Assembly (NCBI GenBank): GCA_903813345.2
Contig: CAIIXF020000001.1
Location: 7,378,001 to 7,442,000 of the forward strand
Direction of reading: 5' to 3'
Origin: Owenia fusiformis
Lineage: Eukaryota
Length of the DNA stretch: 64,000 nucleotides
Part shown: positions 10,348 to 64,000 of the stretch, piece by piece
How the letters are laid out: each line of letters begins with the position of its first letter
Numbering within the stretch: position 1 is the first letter of the stretch
Notes under the pieces: generated by a model
What the model was told of the DNA's origin: nothing
Databases searched by the model: none
Seen by the model: the letters and a program-made list of their open reading frames with translations, nothing else
Made by a program: the position numbers and the translations under genes

Positions 10348-11549
10348 GGTTAATACTTCTAACTACAAGAACACAAATGTGTACAAAATGTCCCCACCTA
10401 TGGGTGATCCCGTCAAATGGTTATCCTAAAAATGAATAGACAAGACTTTACCGACACAATTTGAGGATGGAAAATCCAAAATGGCCACCTTAAAATTTAC
10501 CCAGAATGCCAAAAAATTAGTCAGTTCTAGATTTTCATACTAAGAACCACCCCTGAAAATTTGAAATTGATCCGTCACACAGTTAACCAGAAAACATGTA
10601 AAAAAGACTTTACAGACAAGATTTCAGGATGGAAAATCCAAAATAGCTGCCTTGACATTTATCCAGAATGCCAAAAAACTAATCTGTTCTAGATTTTCAT
10701 ACGAAGAATCATCCGTGAAAATTTGAAATTGATCTACCAAACGGTTCACCTGGAAATGCATAGACAAGACTACAGACAAGATTTTAGGAAAGAAAATCCA
10801 AAATGGCTGCCTTGACATTTATCCAGAATGCCAAAAAACCAATCAGATCTAGATTTTCATACTAAGAATCATCCCTGAAAATTTGAAATTGATCTACCAA
10901 ACGGTTCACCTGGAAATGCGTAGACAAGACTTTACAAACAAGATTTTAGGACAGAAAATCCAAAATGGCTGCCTTGACATTTACCCAGAATGCCAAAAAA
11001 CTAATCAGATCTAGATTTTCATACTAAGAATCATCCCTGAAAATTTGAAATTGATCTACAAACGGTTCACCTAAAAACGCGTAGACAAGACTTTACGGGC
11101 AAGATTTTAAGACGGAAAATCCAAAATGGCTGCCTTGACATTTATCCAGAATGCCAAAAAACTTATCAGATCTAGATTTTTATACTAAGAATCATCCCTG
11201 AAAATTAGAAATTGATCTACCAAACGGTTCACCTGGAAATGCGTAGACAATACTCTACAGACAAGATTTTAGGATGGAAAATCTGAAATGGCTGCCTTGA
11301 CATTTACCCAGAAAGCCTAAAAACTAATCAGATATAGATTTTCATACTAAGAATCATCCCTGGAAATTTGAAATTGATCTACCAAACGGTTCACCTAGAA
11401 ATGTGTAGACAAGACATTACAGACAAGATTTTAGGACGGAAAATCCAAAATAGCTGCCTTGACATTTACCCAGAATGCCCAAAAACTAATCAGATCTAGA
11501 TTTTCATACTAAGAATCATCCCTGAAAATTTGAAATTGATCTACGAAAC

Positions 11550-13945
11550 CATGACCAAAATCTAATCAAATCTATTGATAATATGACCAAGAATGATAAG
11601 AATTACTGGAAAATTATTAGATCTTTCCTTGGAAACAATTTTAAGAAATCAGAAATAGCATGCATTATAGATGACAGAACTGGTATCCCAATTAATAAAA
11701 ACCTGGACATAGCCAATTCTTTTATGAAATATTTTTCTGGTAAAAATCACATGGAGATCAACAACAACGACACACTACCAAACTTTCCATCGAGAACAAA
11801 TTCCTTCATTATATCTGCAATTACCAACCAACATGAGATAATGAAACTTATACTTAACCTAGATACTTCAAAAACATGCGGTCCTGATAACATAACCAAT
11901 AAAATGTTAAACTTAACAGCCCATACACTTTCAAAACCACTCTCTAAATTATTCAATAAGCTTTTGACAAAAAATATTTTCCCGGAAACATGGAAAATTG
12001 GTAGTGTCTGTCCAATTTTTAAAAAAGATGACAAGACAAATATAAAAAAAAATTATAGACCAATTATGCTCCTAAATACCCTATCAAAGCTCTTTGAAAA
12101 AGTTCTTGCTGATCGAATTAAAAAACATCTTATACAAAATGATTTACTTTTTAAACATCAATCTGGTTTCCTGCCTGGCCACAGTACACACTCTCAACTT
12201 TTAGCTATTGAGCACTACCTGCAATGCACTTTCGAGGAAGGCAAAGCCTCTAAATCAATATTCCTTGATATTTCGGCCGCTTTTGATTGCGTACCACATA
12301 ATCTTCTATTGCTTAAACTTAAATCTTACGGTATCCAAGGCCAACTGCTCAATGTACTCAAATCCTATCTGAATGACAGAAAATTCTTTGTTAATGTAGG
12401 TGGCGAATCTTCAAAACTTTCTGATACTAATTTTATTAACTGTGGCGTCCCACAGGGGTCTATTCTAGGGCCTATTCTATTTATCTTGTACATTAATGAT
12501 ATTCCTGACAACCTGGGTGGCCAGTGCTACATCTATGCTGATGATACCTCTTTACATTTTAAACTTGATCCAAAAGACCCCACTAATGTTGATGATTCTG
12601 TTAAGTCAAGCCTAGAAAGCATTGAACAATGGTCAACTACTTGGAAACTACAGTTTAAACCAGAAAAAAGTCATGAACTGATATTTCATAAACCTAGAAC
12701 ACGTATTAATGATATCAGTCCATCTAATCTTAATAATATGGAAATAGTTAGAGCTGATTCCCATAAACACCTTGGTTTCACGTTTGATCCCTGCTTAACA
12801 CACAAGCACCATATAAGTAACATCTATGATAACGTAACAAAAATGTTGAATCCATTTAAAAAACTCAAAAACAAAATAGGATCTAGTCATTTGGAGACAA
12901 TCTTCAACTCCTTCATATTGCCCCATTTTGATTATGGTACCATCATTTACAATAGTTCTTCCAAATATCTACTTCAAAGGCTCGATAGATTATATTATAA
13001 AGCTGCTATCTACTGCTCAGGTTGTATTCACGGGAGCAGCACAGATAAAGTACTAACGCTACTTCAATGGCCATCTCTTGACACTAGAAGAAAAATGTTT
13101 ATAAACAACTTTATGTACAAAATAGTCCATGGTCCTAACCCTAAATTTCTTGATGACATATTTGATAAGTTCAAAAAACCAGAAACTCGAAACTTGCGTA
13201 ACACTGATGAGTTCATTATACCAAAATGCTCTGAACGGTACAGAAATTCAGCGGTACCCTCTGCAATCTCCAACTGGTTAGCCCTGCCAAATACATTAAA
13301 GAGTAAAGCTACTATCCAGAATTTCAAGAAACATCAAAAACTGCTTTTCAAAAATCCAATAAATGTCATCACAACCAGCAAACTGAACCTCACAAGGAGC
13401 CATGAGATAATAGTAAATAAATTCAGGGCCGACTTTTTATTTAAGGCCCAACTATATGCTCATAACTTTAGCAATATTGACAACCCAAACTGTTCATGTG
13501 GACATCCACAAACAGTTAAACACTTCTTTTTCCACTGTGCTCATTTGACACATGCCAGGGATGAATTTAATCAATACCTGAAAAACCTGATCCCTGAAAT
13601 TTTTGACAGGCAAATCTCTCAGCATAAATATCTTGAAGTTCTGAAATATGGCTCAACTGAAATCTCTATCGAACTTAATTCGAAAATGATGACCAGGCTA
13701 GCTTCCTTTATAAAAGCCAATATATGATTTTCCCTCCTTAAACATCTTTTATCTCCATTAACTGTTTCCCACGCCAAGCACCCCCCCCACAACCCCAAAA
13801 CTACTGTTAACATTGCTCCTTATATTATATTTCATTAAGTTCCATCAATTCTTCTATAATGCCATGCATGTATTTGGCGATTGAAGATTTTGTAAATGTT
13901 ATGTAATGAATGAGGATAATTAATAAATAAATAAAAAAAAAAAAA
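11550..13945 (+). mobile_element. 5'-truncated non-LTR retrotransposon (CR1/L2 group)
   Basis: RT ORF, (AATA)n plus poly-A tail, and 11-bp TSD ATCTACGAAAC at 11539-11549 and 13946-13956. Confidence 0.92.
11583..13727 (+). CDS. LINE ORF2 reverse transcriptase (endonuclease lost by 5' truncation)
   Basis: 714-aa uninterrupted ORF with NYRPI, QSGF, FLDISAAFD, GVPQGSILGP, YADD, HLG and a C-terminal CSCG..H...C knuckle. Confidence 0.92.
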   Translation: MTKNDKNYWKIIRSFLGNNFKKSEIACIIDDRTGIPINKNLDIANSFMKYFSGKNHMEINNNDTLPNFPSRTNSFIISAITNQHEIMKLILNLDTSKTCGPDNITNKMLNLTAHTLSKPLSKLFNKLLTKNIFPETWKIGSVCPIFKKDDKTNIKKNYRPIMLLNTLSKLFEKVLADRIKKHLIQNDLLFKHQSGFLPGHSTHSQLLAIEHYLQCTFEEGKASKSIFLDISAAFDCVPHNLLLLKLKSYGIQGQLLNVLKSYLNDRKFFVNVGGESSKLSDTNFINCGVPQGSILGPILFILYINDIPDNLGGQCYIYADDTSLHFKLDPKDPTNVDDSVKSSLESIEQWSTTWKLQFKPEKSHELIFHKPRTRINDISPSNLNNMEIVRADSHKHLGFTFDPCLTHKHHISNIYDNVTKMLNPFKKLKNKIGSSHLETIFNSFILPHFDYGTIIYNSSSKYLLQRLDRLYYKAAIYCSGCIHGSSTDKVLTLLQWPSLDTRRKMFINNFMYKIVHGPNPKFLDDIFDKFKKPETRNLRNTDEFIIPKCSERYRNSAVPSAISNWLALPNTLKSKATIQNFKKHQKLLFKNPINVITTSKLNLTRSHEIIVNKFRADFLFKAQLYAHNFSNIDNPNCSCGHPQTVKHFFFHCAHLTHARDEFNQYLKNLIPEIFDRQISQHKYLEVLKYGSTEISIELNSKMMTRLASFIKANI

Positions 13946-23000: not shown

Positions 23001-23147
23001 TTGAAACTTTACAACTAATTAGTTTTTTGGCAATTTCTAGATGAATGTTAAATTGGCCATTTTGGATTTTCCATCCTGAAATCTTCTCTTCAGCTGATTA
23101 TTGGTGGGCATTTAGGTTACAAAATCTATATAGGATCAACCATTGAC

Positions 23148-25589
23148 ATGCATGTTGCACATGTTTGTTTAATTGTGTTGAAAAAGTACACATTTCTAAC
23201 AAAGGCATCTTTTTTCCAGTCAGATGAGGTTGTTCAACGCTCTTTCAATGAAACGATAAAAAATAACAGCACTAGATGTCCACATTGCAATGCAACTTGG
23301 CTACAATCAAACAACAGGGCTTCATTTAATAACACCAGCTTAGCTTCTAAATCAACAGCCACAATAGAATGCATGGAATCCCCTGGATGTAACAGATTGA
23401 CCCAATGGCTTTCTGCAACGACCGAGTCATCTTATGAGAACTTTACCTCTGACAAAAATGTCAATGCAGACCTACCTTCAGGTGTTTCAGGCCACAAGAC
23501 ATTCATCGTGCAAGACTTTTTTCGGGATCTTGAAGTATCAAGAGCTGAACTTATCATTGAGGTTACCATATTGGTTGTGTTAATGATTACTGGTGCCCCA
23601 AGTAATGCATTAATCATTTTTGTGCTGATTATATCAAAAAACTTGCGCAAATCAAAGGATTTTATGATTTTTAGCCTAGCTTTATCTGGTCTAATAATTA
23701 CCATAGTCACTCATCCAATATCCATTTACACTACTTATTTTGGAAATGGAAACTCTGAAGCAGTCGAAGGTCTTCTGTGTGATGTTGTCAGCCACTGTTT
23801 AGTAATAAGCATCGGCGCAACTTGGTATAGTTCTTCTCTTATGGCTCTAAATTGTTTCTATTCAACTCGGCCTCATTCAAAAATGCGAATAATATTACAA
23901 AGCAGACTGTGTATTATATTTTTGTTGGTTCTTGCCTGGCTCATTCCCACTGTGATCACGGTCATACCTCACATTGCAGGGTACGCATTACCAGCTTATG
24001 CTCCCGTATGGGGTGTCTGCCAAACTCTTATGCGTGCCCCTCGAAAAGAAAATATCACAAATAGTGCCATCATTGTAGTGGTATTTTTAATGGCTTTCAA
24101 CATGATTGTATGCTCATTTTTCTATGCCAAATTGTTAGTATTCTTGTACAGGCGAACTGTTATATTTTCTAATAGTGCAGTACAGGGTCAGTTTGAAAGA
24201 ACGTGTAAACAAATGATTCTCATGTTTTTCTTAATGGTAGTTTGTTTATTGCCATTGACCATTGTAGGATTTGTTGACCCGTTAATGATAAAGTTGAGCT
24301 CGATGCCTACTGTGTTTAACCGTCTGATTTTCTATATCTGCTTGGCAAATAGTTCAATCAACCCTTTTATCTATTTATTCAAACATAAAGATATTAGACA
24401 GGCTGCCCTAAAATTTTGTTGCAACACTGCATCTGTGGCTATGCATTCACCTGCTATAGGTAATATGCTTCCCCTTGGATCTGTTGCCATGCCACAGTAT
24501 GGATCTGTTGGTGAGCCACGAGAAGCAACTATCGGTGTGCTCAACCATGGATCTGTTGGTGAGCCACGAGAAGCAACTATCTGTGTGCTCAACCATGGAT
24601 CTGTTGGTGAGCCACAAGAAGCAACTATTAGTGTGCTCAACCATGGATCTGTTGGTGAGCCACGAGAAGCAACTATCAGTGTGCTCAACCATGGATCTGT
24701 TGGTGAGCCACAAGAAGCAACTATTAGTGTGCTCAACCATGAATCTGTTAGTGAGCCACGAGAAGCAACTATTAGTGTGCTCAACCATGAATCTGTTAGT
24801 GAGCCACGAGAAGCAACTATCTGTGTGCTCAACCATGGATCTGTTGGTGAGCCACAAGAAGCAACTATTAGTGTGCTCAACCATGGATCTGTTGGTGAGC
24901 CACAAGAAGCAACTATTAGTGTGCTCAACCATGGATCTGTTGGTGAGCCACGAGAAGCAACTATTAGTGTGCTCAACTATGGATCTGTTGGTGAGCCACA
25001 AGAAGCAACTAATAGTGTGCTCAACCATGGATCTGTTGGTGAGCCACGAGAAGCAACTATCGGTGTGCTCAACCATGGATCTGTTGGTGAGCCACAAGAA
25101 GCAACTATTAGTGTGCTCAACCATGGATCTGTTGGTGAGCCACAAGAAGCAACTATTAGTGTGCTGAACCATGGATCTGTTAGTGAGCCACGAGAAGCAA
25201 CTATCGGTGTGCTCAACCATGGATCTGTTGGTGAGCCACGAGACGCAACTATTAGTGTGCTCAACCATGGACCTGTTAGTGAGCCACGAGAAGCAACTAT
25301 CGGTGTGCTCAACCATGGATCTGTTGTCAAGCCACATGAAACAACTATCGGTGTGCTCAACCATGGATCTGTTGGTGAGCTACGAGAAGCAACTATTGGT
25401 GTGCTCAACCATGGATCTGATGGTGAGCCACGAGAAACAACTATTGGTATGCTCAACCATGGATCTGTTGGTGAGCCACGAGAAACAACTATTGGTGTGC
25501 TCAACCATGGATCTGGTGGTGAGCCACATGAAACAACTATTGGTGTACCAACATACACTAATGTTGGTATGCCCCCATGTTATATATAA
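23148..25589 (+). CDS. Orphan class A (rhodopsin-like) GPCR with tandem-repeat C-terminal tail
   Basis: Seven hydrophobic segments, N-glycosylation sequons in the N-terminus, TM1 SNALII, TM3 Cys, TM4 AW, TM6 CLLP, TM7 NSSINPFIY, helix 8 plus CC. True start uncertain: acceptor TTTTTCCAG at 23219, later in-frame Met at MESPG. Confidence 0.88.
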   Translation: MHVAHVCLIVLKKYTFLTKASFFQSDEVVQRSFNETIKNNSTRCPHCNATWLQSNNRASFNNTSLASKSTATIECMESPGCNRLTQWLSATTESSYENFTSDKNVNADLPSGVSGHKTFIVQDFFRDLEVSRAELIIEVTILVVLMITGAPSNALIIFVLIISKNLRKSKDFMIFSLALSGLIITIVTHPISIYTTYFGNGNSEAVEGLLCDVVSHCLVISIGATWYSSSLMALNCFYSTRPHSKMRIILQSRLCIIFLLVLAWLIPTVITVIPHIAGYALPAYAPVWGVCQTLMRAPRKENITNSAIIVVVFLMAFNMIVCSFFYAKLLVFLYRRTVIFSNSAVQGQFERTCKQMILMFFLMVVCLLPLTIVGFVDPLMIKLSSMPTVFNRLIFYICLANSSINPFIYLFKHKDIRQAALKFCCNTASVAMHSPAIGNMLPLGSVAMPQYGSVGEPREATIGVLNHGSVGEPREATICVLNHGSVGEPQEATISVLNHGSVGEPREATISVLNHGSVGEPQEATISVLNHESVSEPREATISVLNHESVSEPREATICVLNHGSVGEPQEATISVLNHGSVGEPQEATISVLNHGSVGEPREATISVLNYGSVGEPQEATNSVLNHGSVGEPREATIGVLNHGSVGEPQEATISVLNHGSVGEPQEATISVLNHGSVSEPREATIGVLNHGSVGEPRDATISVLNHGPVSEPREATIGVLNHGSVVKPHETTIGVLNHGSVGELREATIGVLNHGSDGEPRETTIGMLNHGSVGEPRETTIGVLNHGSGGEPHETTIGVPTYTNVGMPPCYI
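24498..25553 (+). repeat. Coding minisatellite, 22 x 48 bp (HGSVGEPREATISVLN)
   Basis: Units counted from the translation; frame stays open to the stop at 25589. Confidence 0.95.
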
Positions 25590-48500: not shown

Positions 48501-50450
48501 AAGCTTTCACTTGTAGCTTGTCGCAAATGCAACTTTCAGCTATCAGTTACCAGATTAACCTAATATTTTATGATGACCATCTCATTTAATTAAATAGGAA
48601 TGGAATAGTGGCAGGTACTATTCATATTTAAATGAGTTGACCATAACAAAGTAGGATAATCCGGTAGCCTACAGCCGAAAGTTGCATTTGTGAATACAAG
48701 CTAAATCTTACCTATAAATATGTATATTTAGAGACAGTGTGAAAACAATTCATTTAAATACATGTTTTATATTTTAAGTTTGTATACTGTATTTTGTATA
48801 TTCATCATCATGATAACTTGATTTCTTCAATATATTGAAAAGCTAGTGTGAGCTGAAAACCCATGATTATACTACACAAAAGTAATATTTACCTATAGCT
48901 GTTAGAATGACTAGATCTTCTTGACGAGTTTTGAGAATTCAACATATCTGTTTTCTTCCCTGTTTCTATGGCAACTGTTGCATCCTCAACCAATACCATT
49001 CCATTTTCAGTTTGACTGGTTATCATAACATTGCGCTCTGAAACACACGATCATCTTGACAATGAATAACATCCTTTTTATATAAAAGCACTGAATCCCA
49101 CATTTCATTACATATTATTTTTTTCGTATTTCTCGCTTCGATGATGACTTTTGAGAGTCTCTCCGGTCTCCAGTTAAATCAAGATTAATGATTTTCTACT
49201 GAAGATAATTCCAATGAGCTACACATACAGTCTGCACCTGATTCTATAATGCCAATTGAGAGGATTTGTATGATGTAGTACTATCAATTCATACTGCTAT
49301 TACCAGTATATAGCTCTGAATGCAATAATATATAGTAATTCCTATTATTGATAGGAGATGCGGGCTTATTTGGAGGTCACCATAAACCCATATCATATTT
49401 TGCAATGAGGAAATTCAAAATAGCTGGCATTAACCTGGTATAGCCTTTTTATTTTTTCGTGAAGCCACTCAGTAAAATTTCTCTGCAACCTGATGTCCAA
49501 TCAAGATCATTCAAGTATCTATGTGTTCCTGATTCGTTTGGGCGTCCGAGAATAACAACGTCTACAAAAAGTTTGCACGCGAAATTGACGTAATTCATGA
49601 CTGAAATCGGGAAGACAAAATTTGAGATTCACAAACAAAATTGCTTGTGAAAATTATTTACAAAAGTGTTCCAGAGACTCTTATCTACTTGGCTAAGGTT
49701 TTATTTGAAGATACATTGCCGTATTAAGCAGGTAGAGGGGCATACAGGACACAGAAGCAAATGCTATGTTGAAAATGTGTCTTGGGAACATTTTTGTAGA
49801 TAGTTATTATAAACAATTCTGAAAGAATATCACATATTTTTGTCTTAACAATTTCAGTCATGAATTACGTCAATTTCGCGTGCAAACATTGGGTAGAAGT
49901 TGTCATTAAGGGATGCCCAAACGTGTCAGGAACACATTAATACTCGAATGATGTTGATTGGACTTCAGGGTGCAGAAAAATCGTAATTTTACTGAGTGGC
50001 TTCATGAAAAAATAAGCAGCACTTTAAGCCAAAAATTAATCAAGCTAAAAACCTTGGTCATGAATAAGAAAAAGAAAACTGATCACAATACTGTATAGCA
50101 CCCAAGGGTGTGATAAAATTGCCTAAATAAAGTACCTATTGTCCCTATACTCACACAGTTCTGTATTCCATACTATATGAGCCTATGGACACAAAATGTG
50201 ACTTTAGACATCAAAATTCCCATTAACATTTGACAGATTCTAAGGATTAAATTTTGAAGTTTAAAACACATAGTCAAACAAAAATTCATACCATGAAATA
50301 AAATTTATAATAAAGGCATTCAAAAGCAAACTTAACCATGTACAAACCTTGGACAGGTGAAGGTTCAAAGCTATCAATAGCCGAGAGGATGTCTTCATGT
50401 GAGGCTGGGTTTGGAAGAGCCTCATTTTGCCGCAGCTTGGACTTACTCAT
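27401..50450 (-). CDS. TBC1D5: TBC1 domain family member 5 (Rab7 GAP, retromer/LC3-associated); 13 coding exons in the window, 3' part not located
   Basis: GT-AG exons with consistent phases join to give SYSAEWDRMF..LRSSRFRSVCWK..NNPLSQ..IKQDVVRT (Arg finger)..YKQGMHELLAP (Gln finger)..LEHDAY..RWIRLLFGREF..LMRYP, matching the TBC1D5 architecture. Confidence 0.93.
27570..28316 (-). mobile_element. HINE-type element
   Basis: Hairpin TGGGCATTTGTGCCCA plus CCCACCGAA; opposite end has (GGAC)n and TTCGGTGGGA. Confidence 0.6.
29578..30328. repeat. Three near-identical ~254-bp tandem units inside Academ 2
   Basis: CTAATTAGTGTAACCCTTACAAATGAAC at 29581, 29835 and 30088. Confidence 0.9.
30320..33480 (-). 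pseudogene. Decayed Academ transposase with XPG-like nuclease and Cys cluster
   Basis: DQGLEQTI, HELTTVPPSLF, NPANK, HEEAD, CDDIDV, TGSDTT, LPPTEDAF and C-terminal Cys cluster; stops and frameshifts. Confidence 0.85.
32726..33367. mobile_element. Tc1/mariner MITE with long TIRs nested in the Academ 2 transposase
   Basis: TA-CAGGGTGTCCCGAAAGTATGGG...CCCATACTTTCGGGACACCCTG-TA; ~250-bp arms. Confidence 0.9.
35946..36088 (-). CDS. TBC1D5: TBC1D5 coding exon 12
   Basis: RWIRLLFGREFPMQDLLVMWDALFA...YVFVAMLLYIRDI; donor GTAAGT. Confidence 0.92.
37112..37287 (-). CDS. TBC1D5: TBC1D5 coding exon 11
   Basis: PSKTEK...IVTKLNIIQSEILSEHDMELYNHLEKYEIAPQVYG. Confidence 0.9.
37659..38255 (-). mobile_element. 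HINE family D with short internal tandem array; short relatives at ~47008 and 53429-53560
   Basis: ACAAGGCATTAACATG..AAAATGTCAC start; GGTGGTGACATAAAAA end; repeated AAATCTAAAGTCAGATT. Confidence 0.55.
38457..38526 (-). CDS. TBC1D5: TBC1D5 coding exon 10
   Basis: ALFCKVMDTVEPWYVSRDIYPAK. Confidence 0.87.
38863..39030 (+). mobile_element. 168-bp retroposed insertion (Penelope pLTR fragment or retrozyme-like)
   Basis: Absent from the second Kolobok copy; flanked by 12-bp TSD TTGATAAATAAA (38851-38862, 39031-39042). Confidence 0.7.
38909..38947 (+). ncRNA. Minimal type I hammerhead ribozyme motif
   Basis: TCA-CTGACGA-A-GGATGT-AGTC-ACATCC-GAAA-GC-TA-TGA: core boxes, perfect 6-bp stem II, palindromic AGCT in place of stem III. 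Confidence 0.6.
39547..39597 (-). CDS. TBC1D5: TBC1D5 coding exon 9
   Basis: ELVKEVLNPQYLEHDA; donor GTAAGT. Confidence 0.9.
40195..40386. mobile_element. hAT-like MITE with 5-bp TSD
   Basis: CAGGCATGTAGCCAG...CTGGCTATGGGCCTG; TSD TCCAA. Confidence 0.7.
42843..42931 (-). CDS. TBC1D5: TBC1D5 coding exon 8
   Basis: GMHELLAPFIFVLHCDHQAFEHATELEQV. Confidence 0.92.
44063..44165 (-). CDS. TBC1D5: TBC1D5 coding exon 7
   Basis: FPEIEFFKEEKIEEMMVNILFCHCRKHHKLSYKQ. Confidence 0.9.
46161..46228 (-). CDS. TBC1D5: TBC1D5 coding exon 6
   Basis: SPWNRFFLDNELRLTIKQDVVR(T). Confidence 0.92.
46315..46724. mobile_element. MITE; related copy at ~43735-44026
   Basis: ACCCAGATGCGAGTAG...CTACTCGCATTTGGGT inverted ends; shared internal sequence with 43745-44020. 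Confidence 0.6.
46945..47019 (-). CDS. TBC1D5: TBC1D5 coding exon 5
   Basis: YIINPRSDSVEENLVVNNPLSQIDE. Confidence 0.9.
47465..47554 (-). CDS. TBC1D5: TBC1D5 coding exon 4
   Basis: LYLETLPENIDDWISETRQRRADYDHMRRK. Confidence 0.87.
48158..48266 (-). CDS. TBC1D5: TBC1D5 coding exon 3
   Basis: AEWDRMFHCPNYLKDLKLQGLEGNLRSSRFRSVCWK. Confidence 0.92.
48514..48703. mobile_element. Small foldback MITE with TAG termini
   Basis: TAGCTTGT..CAAATGCAACTTTC versus GAAAGTTGCATTTG..ACAAGCTA. Confidence 0.6.
48893..49037 (-). CDS. TBC1D5: TBC1D5 coding exon 2
   Basis: Open 145-nt exon ending ...SHSNSY-S; phases match both neighbours. Confidence 0.75.
49448..50016. mobile_element. MITE with ~170-bp TIRs
   Basis: GAAGCCACTCAGTAAAATT...GCACGCGAAATTGACGTAATTCATGACTGAAAT mirrored at 49850-50015. 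Confidence 0.7.
50348..50450 (-). CDS. TBC1D5: TBC1D5 first coding exon (exon extends as 5'UTR to the acceptor at 50556)
   Basis: MSKSKLRQNEALPNPASHEDILSAIDSFEPSPVQ; phase-1 donor matches the next exon; TTTTTTCAG acceptor upstream. Confidence 0.65.
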
Positions 50451-51716
50451 CTTGTGTGCTTGTTACTTCTCTTAGTACAATGTAGATCTCTATCAAAGAA
50501 ACCAATGTATATCCTTACTGGACATTTCTGCTTTCTTGATTACTTTTATGACCATTCTGAAAAAATAAATAGATTAGATTAAGATATTTCTGAGTTCTAA
50601 TATCAAGCCTCTCCTATGCAACCTGCCTCAAAGGTCCATGTGCAGTATGGCAAGTGATTTGAGATGGCCATATCTTTCACAATGAGTACTTTCTGGGCAA
50701 AAATACAGTGGTTTTTATTAAAACAATATGTTTTCTTTACAGTGAAGTTCACATGATGATAAAAATATCAATCGAACAATTCGAAAAATTATAAATAGGG
50801 ACCCAAGTCAACGATTTTTTCAAAATGTTGAACTTATTTGCTCAAAAGAGGATCCTCTTTTTCTGATTTTTATTGCATGAAAACAATATTCAACAAGGGG
50901 TCTAAAACATTGGCAAATTACCACTTTGTGTAAAACTATCATAAAGTAAAAAAATGAATATTTTGCATGAGGCTTAGATAGTCTTCAATTCTTTGTTTCC
51001 CATCAGGTGAAAAAACATTATTTTCTTGTTCTTGTACTATCTGTATTGCTATTGAGATTGTCCCCGTTGATCATCTCCGTCGCAATACAGAAAATATTGG
51101 TACGGAGGGGACAATCTCAGTAGCAATACAGAGGATCACACAATAAAAACGTTATTGAATGAGACGAAGTCTAGTGCCAATACAGAATATCGAGACAGAA
51201 TATATGCTGTATTGCACTTCAAATCATTCAATAACTTAAAGTATAGAAATCCTATCATTCATAAATCTTAGAATATTCTCTATTAACATTTATTTTCAGA
51301 TACCTCATTCATTGTGCTACATCATTGGTAGCGAGAAACACCCTCTAATAAATTAATTTTGCAGAGCAATGTTTCAATAATACTCAATACATACTCTTCT
51401 ATTGTGAATACCAAGTAAATTTAACCTGTGCAAGTGGAACACCTTTGGTTCTTCAGAACAGTATTCCACTTGAGGATTTGAACTATGTATTGTTGAATAT
51501 AAAACACTGATAACGAAAGCAAACCCCTTTAACAGCAACAGAAAATTTGTAAATCAATATTGAATTCTAATGTCATTATGACCTGCCATTTTGATCACGG
51601 TACGGCTAATTTTAAACAGTAAGAACAACATTAGGAGGGCAAGTATACAGCAAAAGCAGTGTAGCAGTAATGAGGAATCAATATTTTATGTTCTCTGAAA
51701 CAGCTCAAAAACTTTG

Positions 51717-53129
51717 ATGCCAAAGAGAACTCTGCCTCAGAAAGCCCAGCAATTATCAAAGAGAATAACAAGATCACAGAGCCGTACCCTAGCATTTGAA
51801 AGAAGGCTGACTAATTTTATTACAACTTTACATAACAGGATCAAACTTCAGGACAATGCTAAAGACCTTGATAATCATCAGAGATACGTCCATGATACTG
51901 TCCAAACTATTTGTAATAAACTAGGAGAGCAATTCCCAACATTCAAAATTCAGGATTGTGGTATTCTACCAAATGGAAGCTATTACCACAAGACAAAGAT
52001 ACTGAAAGCTGATGAGTTTGATTACCTGATCCCTCTTGCTCTTGCATTAGACAAAGATGTTGCCATTCAACACAAGTCCATCACAAAGCTTGAAGTAGAC
52101 ATCCTAAGTGACACCCTAATTGATGTCATGAATGCAACATGCAGTGAACTTAAGACAGTCAAGATAAATGCTGTAAAGGATGGCAAACTACCAGTTGGTA
52201 TCACTAAATATCTCCGTAAAGCTATTGCTAAATGCTTAACTATACTGCACCATGAAGGCAAGCTTGACTATAAAGGTGAGACAGATATGCGAGATGATTC
52301 TTCAGGCAAATCTGAGATGTTATTGGACAAACAGATTGAACTGGACACAGGTCTCCATGGCCCATGTGTAAGATTAAGGCTCAGTGGCCCATTGTGTGTG
52401 GCCGATGTCGACTTAGGATTCTGTATGATTATACCCAAATCTAACACAAATGGTGGTTGCTACGTCGCTTTACCAATCCAACCTAACTGGGTGAAGTCCT
52501 TTTATGAATACCCAGAGAATTGTAGAGTCGATCAGCATCATTGTATGATTGTTATGACATTGAAATACATGATACATGTATGTAATAAAGATCTTCCAAC
52601 ATGTTACAGCTCTTTTGCAATAACTACGATTGTCCATAACCACCAGAGAAAATGTAACATGGAAGACCATGCAGGTAAAGAAAGAACATTAGGGAATTGC
52701 TTGCGTGATATAGCAAACTTTATGTTCAAAATTAGTGGCTTAAAAGAACATGGCAATACAGTAACAGTTGGCAGGAAATGGGAAAATGATCTGCCAAATA
52801 TTGACATCAAAAGGGTAAATCTGTTTGAATCGTTTTGGGTAATGGATCAATTATTTACACTGTTTCTCTATACATGGCTTGAATTCCTGAAATCTTCTGA
52901 TGAAAAAAAATATTCAAGTGAAAGCTATTGTCAACAACTTAAAACACTTTGTCAAAATATCACACTTGAGTTTATTAAGGAGAATAAGCTCCAATATCCA
53001 GAAAAGTGTGAAAAAATTTCTATGGAAGATCCGTATGAAATTCTCAATCACCTTTCCTCTCATCTGTCAATTTTATCACAAAAAGAGATCACATTATATA
53101 TAGGCAATTTAATAAAATACTGTACATGA
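51717..53129 (+). CDS. cGAS-like receptor (cGLR; Mab-21/MB21D nucleotidyltransferase), single coding exon
   Basis: 470-aa intact ORF: NGSYYHKTKILKADEFD (hGSx11EhD), third acid in DVDL, WVKSF, LKY, SSF, LGNCL, NLF motifs of the cGAS/Mab21 fold; acceptor ..AAACAG at ~51703; AATAAA at ~53349. Confidence 0.88.
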   Translation: MPKRTLPQKAQQLSKRITRSQSRTLAFERRLTNFITTLHNRIKLQDNAKDLDNHQRYVHDTVQTICNKLGEQFPTFKIQDCGILPNGSYYHKTKILKADEFDYLIPLALALDKDVAIQHKSITKLEVDILSDTLIDVMNATCSELKTVKINAVKDGKLPVGITKYLRKAIAKCLTILHHEGKLDYKGETDMRDDSSGKSEMLLDKQIELDTGLHGPCVRLRLSGPLCVADVDLGFCMIIPKSNTNGGCYVALPIQPNWVKSFYEYPENCRVDQHHCMIVMTLKYMIHVCNKDLPTCYSSFAITTIVHNHQRKCNMEDHAGKERTLGNCLRDIANFMFKISGLKEHGNTVTVGRKWENDLPNIDIKRVNLFESFWVMDQLFTLFLYTWLEFLKSSDEKKYSSESYCQQLKTLCQNITLEFIKENKLQYPEKCEKISMEDPYEILNHLSSHLSILSQKEITLYIGNLIKYCT

Positions 53130-54598
53130 TTCCAAATGTAAACTGTGTGTTCCTTTAATTTAATGAATATATATTAGCAATAACAATCACTTTGTGCCAT
53201 ATATATAAACTATAATACAACATAACCATAACTTGTAATGTTAAGACACGTAAATGTTGCAATGACACATAATGATCTGTCACTTACCAGAACAGCATCC
53301 ATATATAATGATAGTATACTCCCTGCCACAAAACACAAGTACACTGCAAATAAAGGCAAGACTTTTTTGAGCTTTGATATTTTCAGAAAAGATCTACCTA
53401 AGACTATTGATGATGCAACTTATAAAATACAAGGCATTAACATGCAAAATGTCACTACCTACCAATTGTTACAGACACAAACCACTAAATACCAACAACC
53501 GACTGCCGAAAACCATCCATAAAAAGAGACATTATGTCACCACTTCTGGTGGTAGCATAATAAATCAAATACATTAAATACATTTTGGATTTATTTAGGA
53601 TTAGAGTGTGCTCTAGATCCTTTTAAGGATGACTTAAGTGACACTTCACATCCATGGATGTATCAATGTATAGATCACTGCCAATGACGTAAATAGAGCA
53701 CTTTGACCTTCTAATCTGCCATTACTTCCTCTCAATGGCAGGAATATTGGATCTGCAGCAGAGCATCATTTATCAGAGAGTGGATAGATGTGTAGGAGTA
53801 ATAATTGACAAGGCTCTAGAGATATGTTTTATCTACACCTTTTTAGCTCATTGCGATTGGACTTCCAATACAAATTCCATTGTAAGCTGTGTTGTGCATT
53901 GCGATAACCGGGGCCCCGTTTGTCTTGATCTTTCTAAACGACAGATAAGAAGGGGTCTGCTAAACCAGGATGTGTGTAGTGCATTCCAATAAACAGTTCC
54001 TAAATTTATCCCAAATGTTGTCTTATAACTTAACTATAAGTAATACAGAACCCAGACAGTTATTTGAGTGTTATATTTCTGAATATCCTTTCTCAAATGT
54101 GACATGTGACCAAGCCCATAGCAGGAGGGAGGTTTGGGGAGTGTGGGTGAACCCACTTGAATTTTGGGAGAAAATTGTCAAATGTGACCCCCCTGAAATT
54201 TTCCAGAAAATGAATGGTTATGGTCCTGGCGACTGTCCGGGGTACTAAATAATACAGCTGCTTCACCAGATTAGACCTAATTACTCTCTCTACCATTACA
54301 GAATCATTGATATTCATAATTTTAAGAATCAGTATAAGATAATTGATCATTACTGATTCTAATTTGATATTTCCCATAATTGAATTATGAAGAACTGGTA
54401 CAAGACCTGAACATTATAAGATATTGATTTGATTCCGGTTGAAGGATGTGAAGTAATATATTGATATCTGGTCTATATTAGGTGCCAGAATATCAGGCAT
54501 CATGTAACATTTTACAATAAATCCTGCATATTGAAACACCTCTTACAATAAATCCTGTATATCAAAACACCTCTCTAATCTGAATACCACTCAATGCA

Positions 54599-54859
54599 CA
54601 CTGGCGGATCTGAAAAAAAATTTGGCCCAAACAAAATTTAGGGCAAAAAAAGGCCTTAAGGTCCCAAAAAGTGGGCCTTTTGTCATTAGTAGGCCTTGTA
54701 AGGCGTTATTTTTTAATTTCAGGCCAAATTTTGAAGAAAATGGGCCTCAAAATTTGGGCCCACTTTTTGGTTTTGGGGCCCAAAATTTTTTTCCGCGGAA
54801 GATTTGTTCTCTGACTGGAAATTTGGGCCCCCCCTTGTTGGTTCCCAGATCCGCCCCTG
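54599..54859. mobile_element. hAT-like MITE
   Basis: CACTGGCGGATCTG...CAGATCCGCCCCTG; flanks ATGCA / ATGTA. Confidence 0.6.
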
Positions 54860-55490
54860 ATGTAAATGCTTTTTGCTTACATTTTTTAATCTGCATTAGG
54901 CCTATACAGTACTTCTATGTTAAAAAACCCCAAAGGGATAACCTCAAGGTGAACAAAACCTGCCAATCTAAACACTTTTGACCAATCTCAATGCAGTTCC
55001 AATTAGACAAGGATTAACTGTGCTTTATTTGATAGACAATGATTTGCTAAATGATAATCTAGATGGGGATTTAATCAAATAAAACAGTCTCATGTAGATT
55101 ACTCTTAAGCCAAAGGCTAGTTGTAATAAGATAAGTGAAATCTCTTCAAAAACAGTCTATAAAAATACCATGAAAATCATTAAAATATAGGTTAGCCAGC
55201 AGTCAGTTTGACTCTATGGAATATTGTCATTTTAATTATTAAAGTTGGAATCAGATCTAGCAAAGAGTAGTTAGTATATAGAGTAGTATAATGACAATTA
55301 TTGTTTCAATTTTAGAATATTTTGGGCTCATATCATTCCTAATTGTTATGTCTATTTTCTAAAAATACCTAAAGTGTTATACTGCATTTGAGGAAAACTA
55401 AAGATTTTTAGAAGAATACACTCACTTTTCTATTCTATGGTTTCCATTTTTATTGGAGAATTTGAACATTTTTGCACTTTGAATCCTTAA

Positions 55491-61392: not shown

Positions 61393-62173
61393 CCTATCTG
61401 GCACAACCATCACTGTGTTATGAAGTCTTTTTAGTTTCGCAAGGATCCTGCCATGACCTGGTTGTGTTATTGTGATAGCCTTATATAACCGTGACAATGC
61501 TTTATAATATTGCATGGCCTGTCATGACCATGGTAAAGTTAAAGCCTGATATGCCCGTAACAATGCTATACTATATTGCAAGGCCTGACATGACCGTGGT
61601 AATGTTAAAGCCTGATATGACCGTGACAAGGATTGCAAGGCCTGTCATGACCATGGTAATGTTAAAGCCTGATATGACCGTGACAATGGTTGCAAGGCCT
61701 GTCATGACCGTGGTAATGTTAAAGCCTGATATGACCGTGACAAGGATTGCAAGGCCTGTCATGACCATGGTAATGTTAAAGCCTGATATGACCGTGACAA
61801 TGGTTGCAAGGCCTGTCATGACCGTGGTAATGTTAAAGCCTGATATGACCGTGACAAGGATTGCAAGGCCTGGCATGACCGTGGTAATGTTAAAGCCTGA
61901 TATGACAGTGACAATGGTTGCAAGGCCTGTCATGACCGTGGTAATGTTAAAGCCTGATATGACAGTGACAATGGTTGCAAGGCCTGTCATGACATTACAC
62001 ATATAGCATTGTCACGGTCATATCAGGCTTTAACATTACCACGGTCATGACAGGCCTTGCAATATAATATAGCATTGTCACGGTTATACCAAGCTTTCAC
62101 GATACCACGGTCATGGCAGGATCCTTGCGAAACTTAAAAACACTTAATAACATGGTGACGGTTGTGTTAGGCA
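61393..62173. mobile_element. Foldback element with asymmetric 57-bp tandem array
   Basis: About 8-9 copies of the 57-bp unit on the left arm, ~2 inverted copies on the right; outer inverted repeat TTTCGCAAGGATCCTGCCATGACC. Confidence 0.75.
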
Positions 62174-63135
62174 TAAGTCTTGCAATAGATAGCATGTGCA
62201 AAGTTTTACCTCTTCTGAGATTCGGCATGATGTTTAGTTTAACATCTTCTTCTTCCTACCTATTTTCTTGAAGTGTATTGATAATTATACATCAGAAGTA
62301 ACAAACTAATATATCAGAAATAACGAACTGGAAAAGCGGATTTCCTCTTTTTCATTTTTCTGAATTATGGAGGTGATAATTCCTGGTGGATATAATAGGG
62401 ACTACACATTTATTTCGTTCAGAGTGCCATAACTGAGGAACGATTGCACTGAACGAACTATAATGCTTCCCAGGGTTCAATTGTTGCACATGCATAGTGA
62501 GAATAAAAAGTGAAATGTCATTCATGAAGAAGAAAATGAATTTGGTCAATTTCCTCTCCTTTTGTTATCCATCAAAAGAATGTACGTGGAAAAGTTTTTC
62601 TTGCAAAAACATGCTGATATCGTTCAATATGCACATTGTTCTCACTTTAATCATCAATTTTTCCCCCACAACTACCTGTGTTGGGGTTTAAAACATTTCC
62701 ATTTTAGGACTTGTATTTTATACCTCGTCACTGAATTATCCATTGAGTGTTTTTTTCATTTTGCCTCAAGCTTCAATTTTTTCTTTATATGAGGTAAGTT
62801 TGGCCAATTCAGGCCAATTCATTGTCATATCTCATCTACCTTTCTTCAAATCAAACTTTGAATGAATTTTGAAATTCAGGAGGTATTTAGACATTTTCTA
62901 CAAAATCTGTTAGATCTCATATTCAACTTTATGACAGAAACATAGATTTTTATTATTGTGCCAAATGTGGATGAAGAGTATAGCAGGCTATATGTATCTT
63001 GCCTCTTTTTTGAACAGGTTTGGGAATATTTTTGCCTTGTCGCTTATTTCTTCCTGGCTATGCCACTGTGCAGTACTAGTAAATGTACTTTTTAGTATGT
63101 TTATTTTGTATTTTTCAGACAAACAAGGGATAATT

Positions 63136-64000
63136 ATGGCATCAAATACACAGGAAACTCAAGAGTCAAAGTCAGGGGAAAATGACAATGTGTCTAATAA
63201 ATCTAACAACTTTGACTCCATCGCCATTAGTGTAGATGACACAAAAGACAGTAGCGATGATGTCACTGATACATCAAGTATGTTGCGGAAGAAAAAACAG
63301 CGTCCAAAATCTGAGAGTGTTTTAGGTGATAACCGTGTCAATAAACAGTCAACTCTTAAACGTGCATCAGATGGAAACTGCGATGAAGATGCCCTTAACG
63401 AGAGTTTAGATTCAGCACGACGTAGGATTGTAACTATGACAGGGACCATTACAAGAGGGAACCAGATAGGACAGACAGTGGACGTTGAGCTGAAACTATC
63501 ACAAGATGAGCTCAGGAAATTAAACCAAAGTTTTGACAGTGAGGATGATGATCCAAATCCTGATTGCGTTTGGGGGCCAAAAAAGGGACTTCATATTTTT
63601 CTATTCACGTTATTGGTCATCCCTGTAGCACTTGTGTTATCATTTTGTGTGGCTTTCTATATGGGGATCATGATGTGGTATAACATGTTCATATACTTCA
63701 GTGAAGAAAGAACAATCTGGCATAAGATATTCATATGTCCTTTACTTATATTATTCTTGCCATTTCTTATTGTTCTAGTCTCACTTGGGATAGGCTTATA
63801 TGCCTGCATTATACAAATCTCATGGTGGTTCCGCAGCTGGAAGCGGGAAATTCGTGACTACGAAAAGGGATTTTATGGTTGGATCTGTAACAAGCTAGAC
63901 ATTGCAGAATGTTCGCCATATGAAGTTGTAATCCTGGATGAATCTCAACTTGATTTACAGACTCCTCTACAGCAAACTGAAGCTACTGCTCAATCTGCAG
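63136..64000 (+). CDS. TMEM169: Transmembrane protein 169 (runs off the window end)
   Basis: Acceptor TTTTTCAG at 63118; open frame MASNTQ...VTMTGTITRG...WYNMFIYFSEERTIWHKI..CP...DYEKGFYGWICNKL..ECSPY, the TMEM169 signature. Missing from the ORF track because there is no stop in the window. Confidence 0.92.
   Translation, partial: MASNTQETQESKSGENDNVSNKSNNFDSIAISVDDTKDSSDDVTDTSSMLRKKKQRPKSESVLGDNRVNKQSTLKRASDGNCDEDALNESLDSARRRIVTMTGTITRGNQIGQTVDVELKLSQDELRKLNQSFDSEDDDPNPDCVWGPKKGLHIFLFTLLVIPVALVLSFCVAFYMGIMMWYNMFIYFSEERTIWHKIFICPLLILFLPFLIVLVSLGIGLYACIIQISWWFRSWKREIRDYEKGFYGWICNKLDIAECSPYEVVILDESQLDLQTPLQQTEATAQSA

Follow-up and report, generated by a model that had tools for sequence, protein, structure and literature searches.

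Introduction

[quoted passage not shown] The closest described systems to the gene considered here are two invertebrate cGLRs: Cv-cGLR1 of the oyster Crassostrea virginica, which makes 2'3'-cyclic UMP-AMP (2'3'-cUA) in response to double-stranded DNA (dsDNA), and Sp-cGLR1 of the coral Stylophora pistillata, which makes 3'3'-cUA in response to double-stranded RNA (dsRNA) (PMC9980059). In this study, we analyzed a 64-kb stretch of the genome of the annelid Owenia fusiformis (contig CAIIXF020000001.1, positions 7,378,001 to 7,442,000 of the forward strand; "the window" hereafter, to which all coordinates refer) and describe an intact gene at 51717..53129 that probably encodes a divergent cGLR-type nucleotidyltransferase.

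Li et al. (2023) define cGLRs by an active-site motif, homology across both lobes of the enzyme, and AlphaFold homology (PMC9980059). Their Table S1 gives five Owenia cGLRs (CAH1786902.1, CAH1779884.1, CAH1791828.1, CAH1788517.1, and CAH1774968.1), and their Table S5 credits Owenia fusiformis with 5 cGLRs and 9 STINGs (PMC9980059). Among the Table S5 species with at least five cGLRs, nine STINGs are otherwise found only in bivalves that carry 218-247 cGLRs, and every other species with at least five STINGs has at least 20 cGLRs (PMC9980059). Our literature search for Owenia or annelid cGLRs, or cGAS-like receptors, found nothing relevant.

Results

An intact reading frame of 470 residues

The gene consists of an uninterrupted open reading frame (ORF) on the plus strand that runs from an ATG at 51717 to a TGA ending at 53129. 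It encodes 470 residues as a single-exon coding sequence (the query protein, P0001), and a stop codon lies in the same frame six codons 5' of the ATG. This is the third-longest stop-to-stop frame of the window, behind those of a reverse transcriptase and a G-protein-coupled receptor (GPCR). The GC content ranges from ~30 to 42% in 2-kb bins; at the ~35% used for the estimate, ~7% of random codons would be stops, and thus a 476-codon open frame would arise by chance at ~5e-16 per position (arithmetic). An assembled contig of a DNA-like sequencing run spans 51214-53332 with 0 differences from the window.

The public protein for the locus (P0002) has 370 residues and ends at F370 (window 51717-52826), so that the ORF adds 100 residues. 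We observed that relatives align to P0001 up to about residue 444 in phmmer searches, and helices at 375-393 and 401-422 were modeled confidently (see below). Because of both, the deposited 370-residue gene model looks truncated, as judged from the alignments and the predicted structure.

A family profile and a predicted fold lead to cGAS

We searched 1.84 billion representative sequences by phmmer with P0001 as the single query (E ≤ 1e-3) and recovered 46 relatives, the best at E 5.4e-57 and none more than 40% identical to P0001. The resulting alignment of 47 sequences (P0001 plus the 46 relatives, six rows being fragments; A1 hereafter) was used as a profile against the sequences of the Protein Data Bank (PDB). 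At E ≤ 1, the profile returned 41 distinct matches, all of which were cGAS, "cGAS-like receptor 1", or the Tribolium Mab-21 cGLR. Mouse cGAS was the best of these (E 5.5e-15), and both closest systems were also matched (Sp-cGLR1, PDB 8gjy, E 7.1e-13; Cv-cGLR1, PDB 8gjw, E 3.7e-7). The alignments extend from the N-terminal spine helix to the C-lobe, with human cGAS constructs (chain 11-334 or equivalent) covering profile positions 38-358 and mouse cGAS covering 38-335. Homology therefore covers both lobes and takes in the KY and S-Y..K motifs of the C-lobe. At the same threshold, the profile matched no MAB21L1, MB21D2, or MiD sequence, and no OAS or terminal uridylyltransferase (TUTase) sequence.

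Other searches reached less far or agreed. Among the nearest clusters in the ESM-Atlas language-model space, 28 of 30 were Mab-21 (score 0.95), and Pfam placed SMODS on P0001 at E 0.08. A word-index protein search led from P0001 to P0002 only and from A1 to P0002 and P0028 only, with no relative from another taxon.

Next to the profile stands the predicted structure. The AlphaFold2 model of P0001, built on A1, has a mean predicted local distance difference test score (pLDDT) of 89.0 and a predicted template modeling score (pTM) of 0.89. Secondary structure assigned by DSSP comprises a helix at 8-42 and, toward the C terminus, the helices at 375-393 and 401-422 (pLDDT 83-95), followed by a tail at pLDDT 65-78. 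E100 and D102 lie on a strand at 100-107, D232 lies on a strand at 228-238, and a short helix follows G87-S88, as the fold predicts. All of the matches listed by Foldseek were cGAS (best E 6.2e-12, template modeling score 0.65 on the target, probability 1.00, identity 14-16%). An exhaustive VIA-align search over 48,161 PDB representatives listed the following scores; families outside these rows are not thereby excluded.

Cv-cGLR1 (oyster): Z 22.3
Sp-cGLR1 (coral): Z 20.7
MiD49: Z 19.9
Mouse cGAS: Z 19.5
Tc-cGLR: Z 19.4
MB21D2: Z 18.8
MAB21L1: Z 18.6
Bacterial cGAS/DncV-like nucleotidyltransferases (CD-NTases): Z 15-18.5
OAS1: Z 16.3; OAS2: Z 15.0
TUTases: Z 13-15

On the strength of the model, the assignment of P0001 to the Mab21/CD-NTase fold is secure; the scores inside this group lie near one another, and little weight should be put on their order. 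P0001 is a very divergent homolog of the cGAS/Mab21 fold, which is reached through the family profile and the fold and not through Pfam.

The catalytic motif is complete and conserved among relatives

We then located the features of the gene by combining the ORF, the A1 alignment, the profile alignment to mouse cGAS, and the model. All lie on the plus strand.

51717..53129, plus strand: coding sequence of a cGLR-like (cGAS/Mab21-fold) nucleotidyltransferase, 470 residues plus stop, as assigned by ORF, family profile, and predicted fold
51738..51842, plus strand: residues 8-42, a long, strongly basic N-terminal helix, the equivalent of the cGAS "spine" helix that opens the catalytic domain (DSSP on the model; isoelectric point; the profile alignment to cGAS starts here)
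51975..51980, plus strand: G87-S88, the activation-loop G[S/G] (G in 42/42 and S in 40/42 filled rows; aligned to GS of mouse cGAS)
52014..52022, plus strand: E100-F101-D102, the first two metal-binding acids, [DE]h[DE] (E in 42/42, D in 40/42; aligned to EFD of mouse cGAS; model strand 100-107)
52410..52412, plus strand: D232, the third catalytic acid, hDh in V231-D232-L233 (D in 45/46; aligned to the D of mouse cGAS SVDII; strand 228-238)
52488..52502, plus strand: W258-V-K-S-F262, the counterpart of cGAS WRLSF (W in 45/45, S261 in 36/45; the Arg position is V here)
52563..52568, plus strand: K283-Y284, the counterpart of cGAS KY (K in 43/43 filled rows; aligned to MKY of mouse cGAS)
52608..52628, plus strand: S298-S-F-A-I-T-T304, the counterpart of cGAS CSYHVKT (Ser and aromatic kept, Lys replaced by Thr)
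52827..53126, plus strand: residues 371-470, the last C-lobe helices and a poorly conserved helical tail, absent from the 370-residue public model (model and alignment occupancy)

Of the 41 A1 rows that are complete at the five catalytic columns (G, S/G, E/D, E/D, D/E), 39 carry the full set, the exceptions being P0018 and P0048. Other columns are nearly invariant: W258 (45/45), S261 (36/45), K283 (43/43), and S299 (38/41). Their counterparts in the profile alignment to mouse cGAS are the W and S of WRLSF, the K of MKY, and the S of CSYHVKT, which we take to be nucleotide-contacting positions in cGAS; the Lys of KY, the counterpart of K283, presumably contacts the triphosphate. Since conservation of the five positions together with K283 and S299 is hard to explain otherwise, catalysis, or at least nucleotide or metal binding, is likely. 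P0001 is predicted from its residues to be probably a catalytically competent cGLR-type nucleotidyltransferase. Conservation is poor toward the C terminus, where the occupancy of A1 drops to 4-22 of 46 rows beyond residue 430. N86 sits where the strict published motif has Q/T; the relaxed motif of the published methods is G[S/G]. Taking motif, two-lobe homology, and model together, P0001 qualifies as a cGLR under the three criteria of Li et al. (2023), in so far as sequence and a predicted structure can speak to them.

These results bear on the initial annotation, which had been made from the DNA letters alone. Its uninterrupted 470-residue frame stands; the GS..E-F-D..D triad and the C-lobe motifs it named are all present as it described them; and the divergent cGAS-like identity it proposed is borne out by the family profile and by the AlphaFold model. 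Its interpretation is supported in part, since its further proposal of an active cGLR with altered nucleotide specificity or ligand, possibly in immune signaling, stays a prediction. It also described P0001 as lacking a zinc thumb. A motif search found no H-x5-CC-x6-C in P0001, and the model joins the strand at 257-264 to the helix at 273-290 through eight residues only, in agreement with that description. The short basic N terminus was likewise recovered: KRITRSQSR occupies residues 15-23, and residues 1-45 have an isoelectric point (pI) of 12.0, with 11 K/R against 1 D/E.

Three of its other observations held for P0001 and acquired a different meaning, or a limit, in the family. The base-contacting Arg of WRLSF is indeed replaced by V259; R occupies this position in only 2 of 45 rows (T 20, I 7), and because the loss is family-wide, it says little about P0001 alone. 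The Lys of the CSYHVKT counterpart is indeed replaced by T303, a change specific to a minority of the family (K in 25 and T in 6 of 42 filled rows). The third observation was that KY and NLF are kept. Both are present in P0001, and K283 is invariant as noted above; N368-L-F370 is not conserved in the family, with N in 8 rows and F in 3. At position 300, the aromatic residue after the Ser pair, P0001 has F; across the family, Y (20 rows) and H (15 rows) outnumber F (3 rows).

We also observed four invariant His and Cys residues on three helices of the C-lobe: H275 (52539-52541; 44/44), H309 (52641-52643; 41/41), C313 (52653-52655; 39/40), and C328 (52698-52700; 39/40). One possible role for this set is to coordinate a structural metal ion.

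The overall charge of P0001 is basic, with a pI of 8.4 for the whole protein and 8.87 for residues 1-370. A pI above 8.5 is reported for nucleic-acid-sensing cGLRs (PMC9980059), and P0001 lies close to that value.

P0001 belongs to a dispersed family in Owenia

Names were available for 30 of the 46 relatives, and 29 of these read "unnamed protein product [Owenia fusiformis]". The weakest relative, P0048 (E 3.4e-4), comes from the oyster Saccostrea cucullata. The Owenia relatives are spread over 12 contigs, 11 of which are 31-62 Mb long. As far as a single-sequence search reaches, the gene thus appears to be one member of a dispersed, fast-evolving radiation that is seemingly confined to Owenia fusiformis.

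We built a quick maximum-likelihood tree from 42 of the 51 collected proteins, namely those of at least 320 residues, with P0002 left out as a duplicate of the query. P0001 falls in a clade with P0003/P0049/P0050 and P0004/P0005, supported by a Shimodaira-Hasegawa-like approximate likelihood-ratio test (SH-aLRT) value of 98. Its terminal branch measures 0.98 changes per site, and the frame is still open and motif-complete; that a gene remains so over a branch of this length speaks for purifying selection over a long time.

None of the five catalogued Owenia cGLRs was recovered by phmmer with P0001 at E ≤ 1e-3 or occurs among the accessions of the relatives, and their N termini are absent from all 51 collected proteins. 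Several relatives are long (P0027, 628 residues; P0011, 1003; P0036, 746; P0038, 684; P0004, 662). P0027 bears C2H2 zinc fingers at its C terminus, and the long relatives are either real fusions or merged gene models.

Weighing the receptor reading against its alternatives

We favor the reading that P0001 is a cGAS-like receptor-type nucleotidyltransferase (cGLR; cGAS/Mab21/CD-NTase fold) of the Owenia radiation, predicted to work like characterized cGLRs, and put its probability at roughly 60%. P0001 would rest inactive, as characterized cGLRs do, until a ligand bound the face formed by its basic N-terminal spine helix. With two metal ions bound at E100, D102, and D232, it would then join two nucleoside triphosphates into a cyclic dinucleotide, which would be read by one or more of the nine catalogued Owenia STINGs. 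The ligand and product need not be dsDNA and 2'3'-cyclic GMP-AMP (2'3'-cGAMP), since P0001 has no zinc thumb and carries V259 for Arg and T303 for Lys.

Several results weigh against this reading. The initial annotation had proposed a check against the Pfam models PF03281 and PF20266, and this check failed: Mab-21 (PF03281) scored 13.3 bits on P0001 (E 0.087), below the cutoff of 24.1, and Mab-21_C (PF20266) gave no match at E ≤ 1. Across the 46 relatives, Mab-21 was reached at E ≤ 0.01 in 18 and above the cutoff in 5, and PF20266 in 0. When P0001 alone was compared with PDB sequences by phmmer, no cGAS was found, only two chance matches that were thioredoxin-reductase-like (E 0.64). The 129 residues between D102 and D232 (104-175 in full-length relatives) exceed the nominal X50-90 of the published cGLR motif. 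Because the catalogued Owenia cGLR CAH1779884.1 has ~165 residues at the same spacing (our count on the printed sequence, PMC9980059), that range was evidently not enforced, and the spacing of P0001 need not be disqualifying. Most of the relatives are not basic (median pI 6.39). In the structural ranking, the non-enzymatic MiD49 stands near the top, and MAB21L1, which has no known activity, is not far below. The window contains no STING or other pathway gene.

Expression is the remaining point, and a lack of it had been named beforehand as a refuting outcome. We mapped three RNA sequencing (RNA-seq) runs, which carry the same species label and come from one study, onto 50000-55000, with 6-12% of each run read (11.0-12.7 million records per run, ~35 million in total). 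The RNA label of the index entries is a guess, and the DNA-like run, X1, showed a flat depth of 11.8. All three RNA-seq runs had zero reads on 51670-53339. Because no read fell on the ORF, the gene shows little or no transcription in the sampled runs. Inducible immune genes can be silent at rest, and an inducible gene could be compatible with this pattern.

The best-surviving alternative, which we consider unlikely, is that P0001 is a non-enzymatic adaptor or scaffold of the Mab21 fold. Such a protein would keep the fold, and possibly nucleotide binding, and signal through protein contacts, as MiD49/51 and MAB21L do. The scores of MiD49 (19.9), MB21D2 (18.8), and MAB21L1 (18.6), all within ~3.5 Z of the best cGLR, fit this idea, and the acidic median pI of the family does not suggest nucleic-acid binding. 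There are precedents: the putative active sites of MAB21L1/2 are complete, yet no product of these proteins is known (Li et al., 2023, PMC9980059), and a crustacean (shrimp) Mab21 is reported to activate IKK-epsilon outside nucleic-acid sensing (PMC12928593). However, an adaptor does not readily account for a catalytic set of five kept in 39 of 41 complete relatives along with K283 and S299, or for a profile that at E ≤ 1 matches cGAS and cGLR chains and not MAB21L1, MB21D2, or MiD.

We regard as improbable, and below the adaptor, the possibility that transcription of this member of the radiation has ceased and that no disabling mutation has arisen in it so far, which would make the gene a silent or dying copy. 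The ORF is free of reads while the flanking repeats are covered, the public gene model reaches only 370 residues, the gene is isolated in a stretch poor in genes and dotted with repeats, the window contains no paralog of it, and T303 replaces the Lys of the family majority. On the other hand, the frame has no interruption and retains every catalytic residue at the tip of a branch 0.98 changes per site long; moreover, the silence was seen in only 6-12% of three runs from a single study, where an inducible immune gene might well be at rest.

That P0001 is an active nucleotidyltransferase of another kind, making linear 2'-5' oligonucleotides as OAS does or adding nucleotides to RNA or protein in place of a STING-directed cyclic dinucleotide, is very improbable: OAS1, OAS2, and the TUTases share the fold and the residues that set the product are not predictable from the present data, but OAS and the TUTases come lower in the structural ranking than cGLRs, cGAS, and bacterial CD-NTases, and neither appears among the profile matches at E ≤ 1.

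Genomic surroundings

Short high-copy repeats flank the gene at 51002-51335, 53340-53506, and 54676-55000 and are heavily covered in the RNA-seq runs and in the DNA-like run. Because 93-94% of those reads run on into unlike sequence, the flanking depth comes from repeats elsewhere in the genome. A 26-nucleotide hairpin (51040-51065 and 51107-51132) lies inside the first flanking repeat. A repeat search found no long terminal or inverted repeats bracketing the gene, only the small hairpin repeat at 51040-51132; a mobile-element cargo origin therefore finds no support. The tblastn search of the window with P0001 gave no second copy of the gene, and there is no other ORF of at least 130 residues between 32029 and 51699. 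Three other frames with recognizable domains were found in the window.

11526-13727, plus strand: reverse-transcriptase ORF of 733 codons (RVT_1, E 6.6e-36), probably a retroelement of the long interspersed nuclear element (LINE) type
23052-25589, plus strand: 845-codon open frame with a rhodopsin-type GPCR domain (7tm_1, E 1.1e-18)
62935-63999, plus strand: open frame with a TMEM169 domain (E 1.5e-53) that runs off the end of the window

Behind its GPCR domain, the frame at 23052-25589 continues as NHGSVGEPREATISVL-like units of ~16 residues, repeated in a long tandem array with several of its frames open. A further tandem repeat at 61479-62011, with PDMTVTM/ARPVMTVVMLK-like units, is open on both strands.

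Discussion

The gene points to a radiation in an early-branching annelid comparable to those of bivalves and corals, and divergent enough to fail Pfam thresholds. More tentatively, and with odds that we would set against it, Owenia may hold a second, uncatalogued cGLR-type radiation (no fewer than 46 clusters at the 50% identity level, distributed over 12 contigs, with the full catalytic set in 39 of 41 complete members) that would account for nine STINGs beside five cGLRs, with the gene in the window being active, inducible, and either responding to an undescribed ligand or making an undescribed nucleotide signal. The missing zinc thumb, the missing base-contacting Arg, and the invariant H275/H309/C313/C328 are what suggest such a ligand or signal. 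"Auto-active" acidic cGLRs are suspected to sense ligands other than nucleic acid (Li et al., 2023, PMC9980059); since most of the relatives found here are acidic, many of them may sense non-nucleic-acid ligands as well.

If the family is active, it would resolve the position of Owenia as an outlier with five cGLRs and nine STINGs, published cGLR counts would underestimate diversity in fast-evolving lineages, and dozens of natural active-site variants would be at hand for studying how cGLRs choose nucleotides and ligands. If the gene is silent or non-catalytic, it would be one more divergent Mab21-fold paralog.

Comparison with known systems

MAB21L1 (PDB 5eog) has its fold in common with P0001 (Z 18.6, 296 residues aligned) and ranks below the cGLRs and cGAS. 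Neither P0001 itself (E ≤ 10) nor the A1 profile (E ≤ 1) matched 5eog, and we rejected membership in the MAB21L1/L2 developmental clade on these grounds, as the only match is a lower-ranked one of fold; the placement outside that clade implied by the initial annotation is upheld. MAB21L proteins are generally highly conserved and encoded by single-copy genes, whereas P0001 is a member of a radiation apparently restricted to one species, whose members share no more than 40% identity. MiD49/MiD51 (PDB 4woy) show the same fold (Z 19.9) with no profile match at E ≤ 1. MiD proteins are membrane-anchored Drp1 receptors with no known nucleotidyltransferase activity. Membership in this group was likewise rejected, as the match is one of fold only and the catalytic set of P0001 is intact.

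The five catalogued Owenia cGLRs come from the same species and superfamily and have GS...EFD...D-type motifs in their printed sequences (PMC9980059). They reach the NCBI Mab-21 superfamily at E 1e-15 to 1e-35 (PMC9980059), whereas P0001 fails the Pfam threshold.

Vertebrate cGAS (PDB 4o6a, 8g2p, and 7bum) provides the top profile and Foldseek matches, and its GS, EFD, hDh, W..S, KY, and S-aromatic motifs align with those of P0001. P0001 differs in having no zinc thumb, where cGAS has an insertion relative to the profile, and in carrying V259 for the Arg of WRLSF and T303 for the Lys of SSYHVKT. It also has an insertion of ~20 residues ahead of the third acidic strand, and its N-terminal extension spans ~25 residues, whereas that of cGAS is long and disordered.

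The best structural match overall is Cv-cGLR1 (PDB 8gjw; Z 22.3, 301 residues aligned, root-mean-square deviation [rmsd] 3.3), followed by Sp-cGLR1 (PDB 8gjy; Z 20.7, 305 residues aligned, rmsd 3.9). These two invertebrate cGLRs share the G-S / E-x-D / D arrangement with P0001 and are only 15-16% identical to it. Compared with them, P0001 has a longer span between its acidic motifs and, at its C terminus (~420-470), an additional helical tail of weak conservation.

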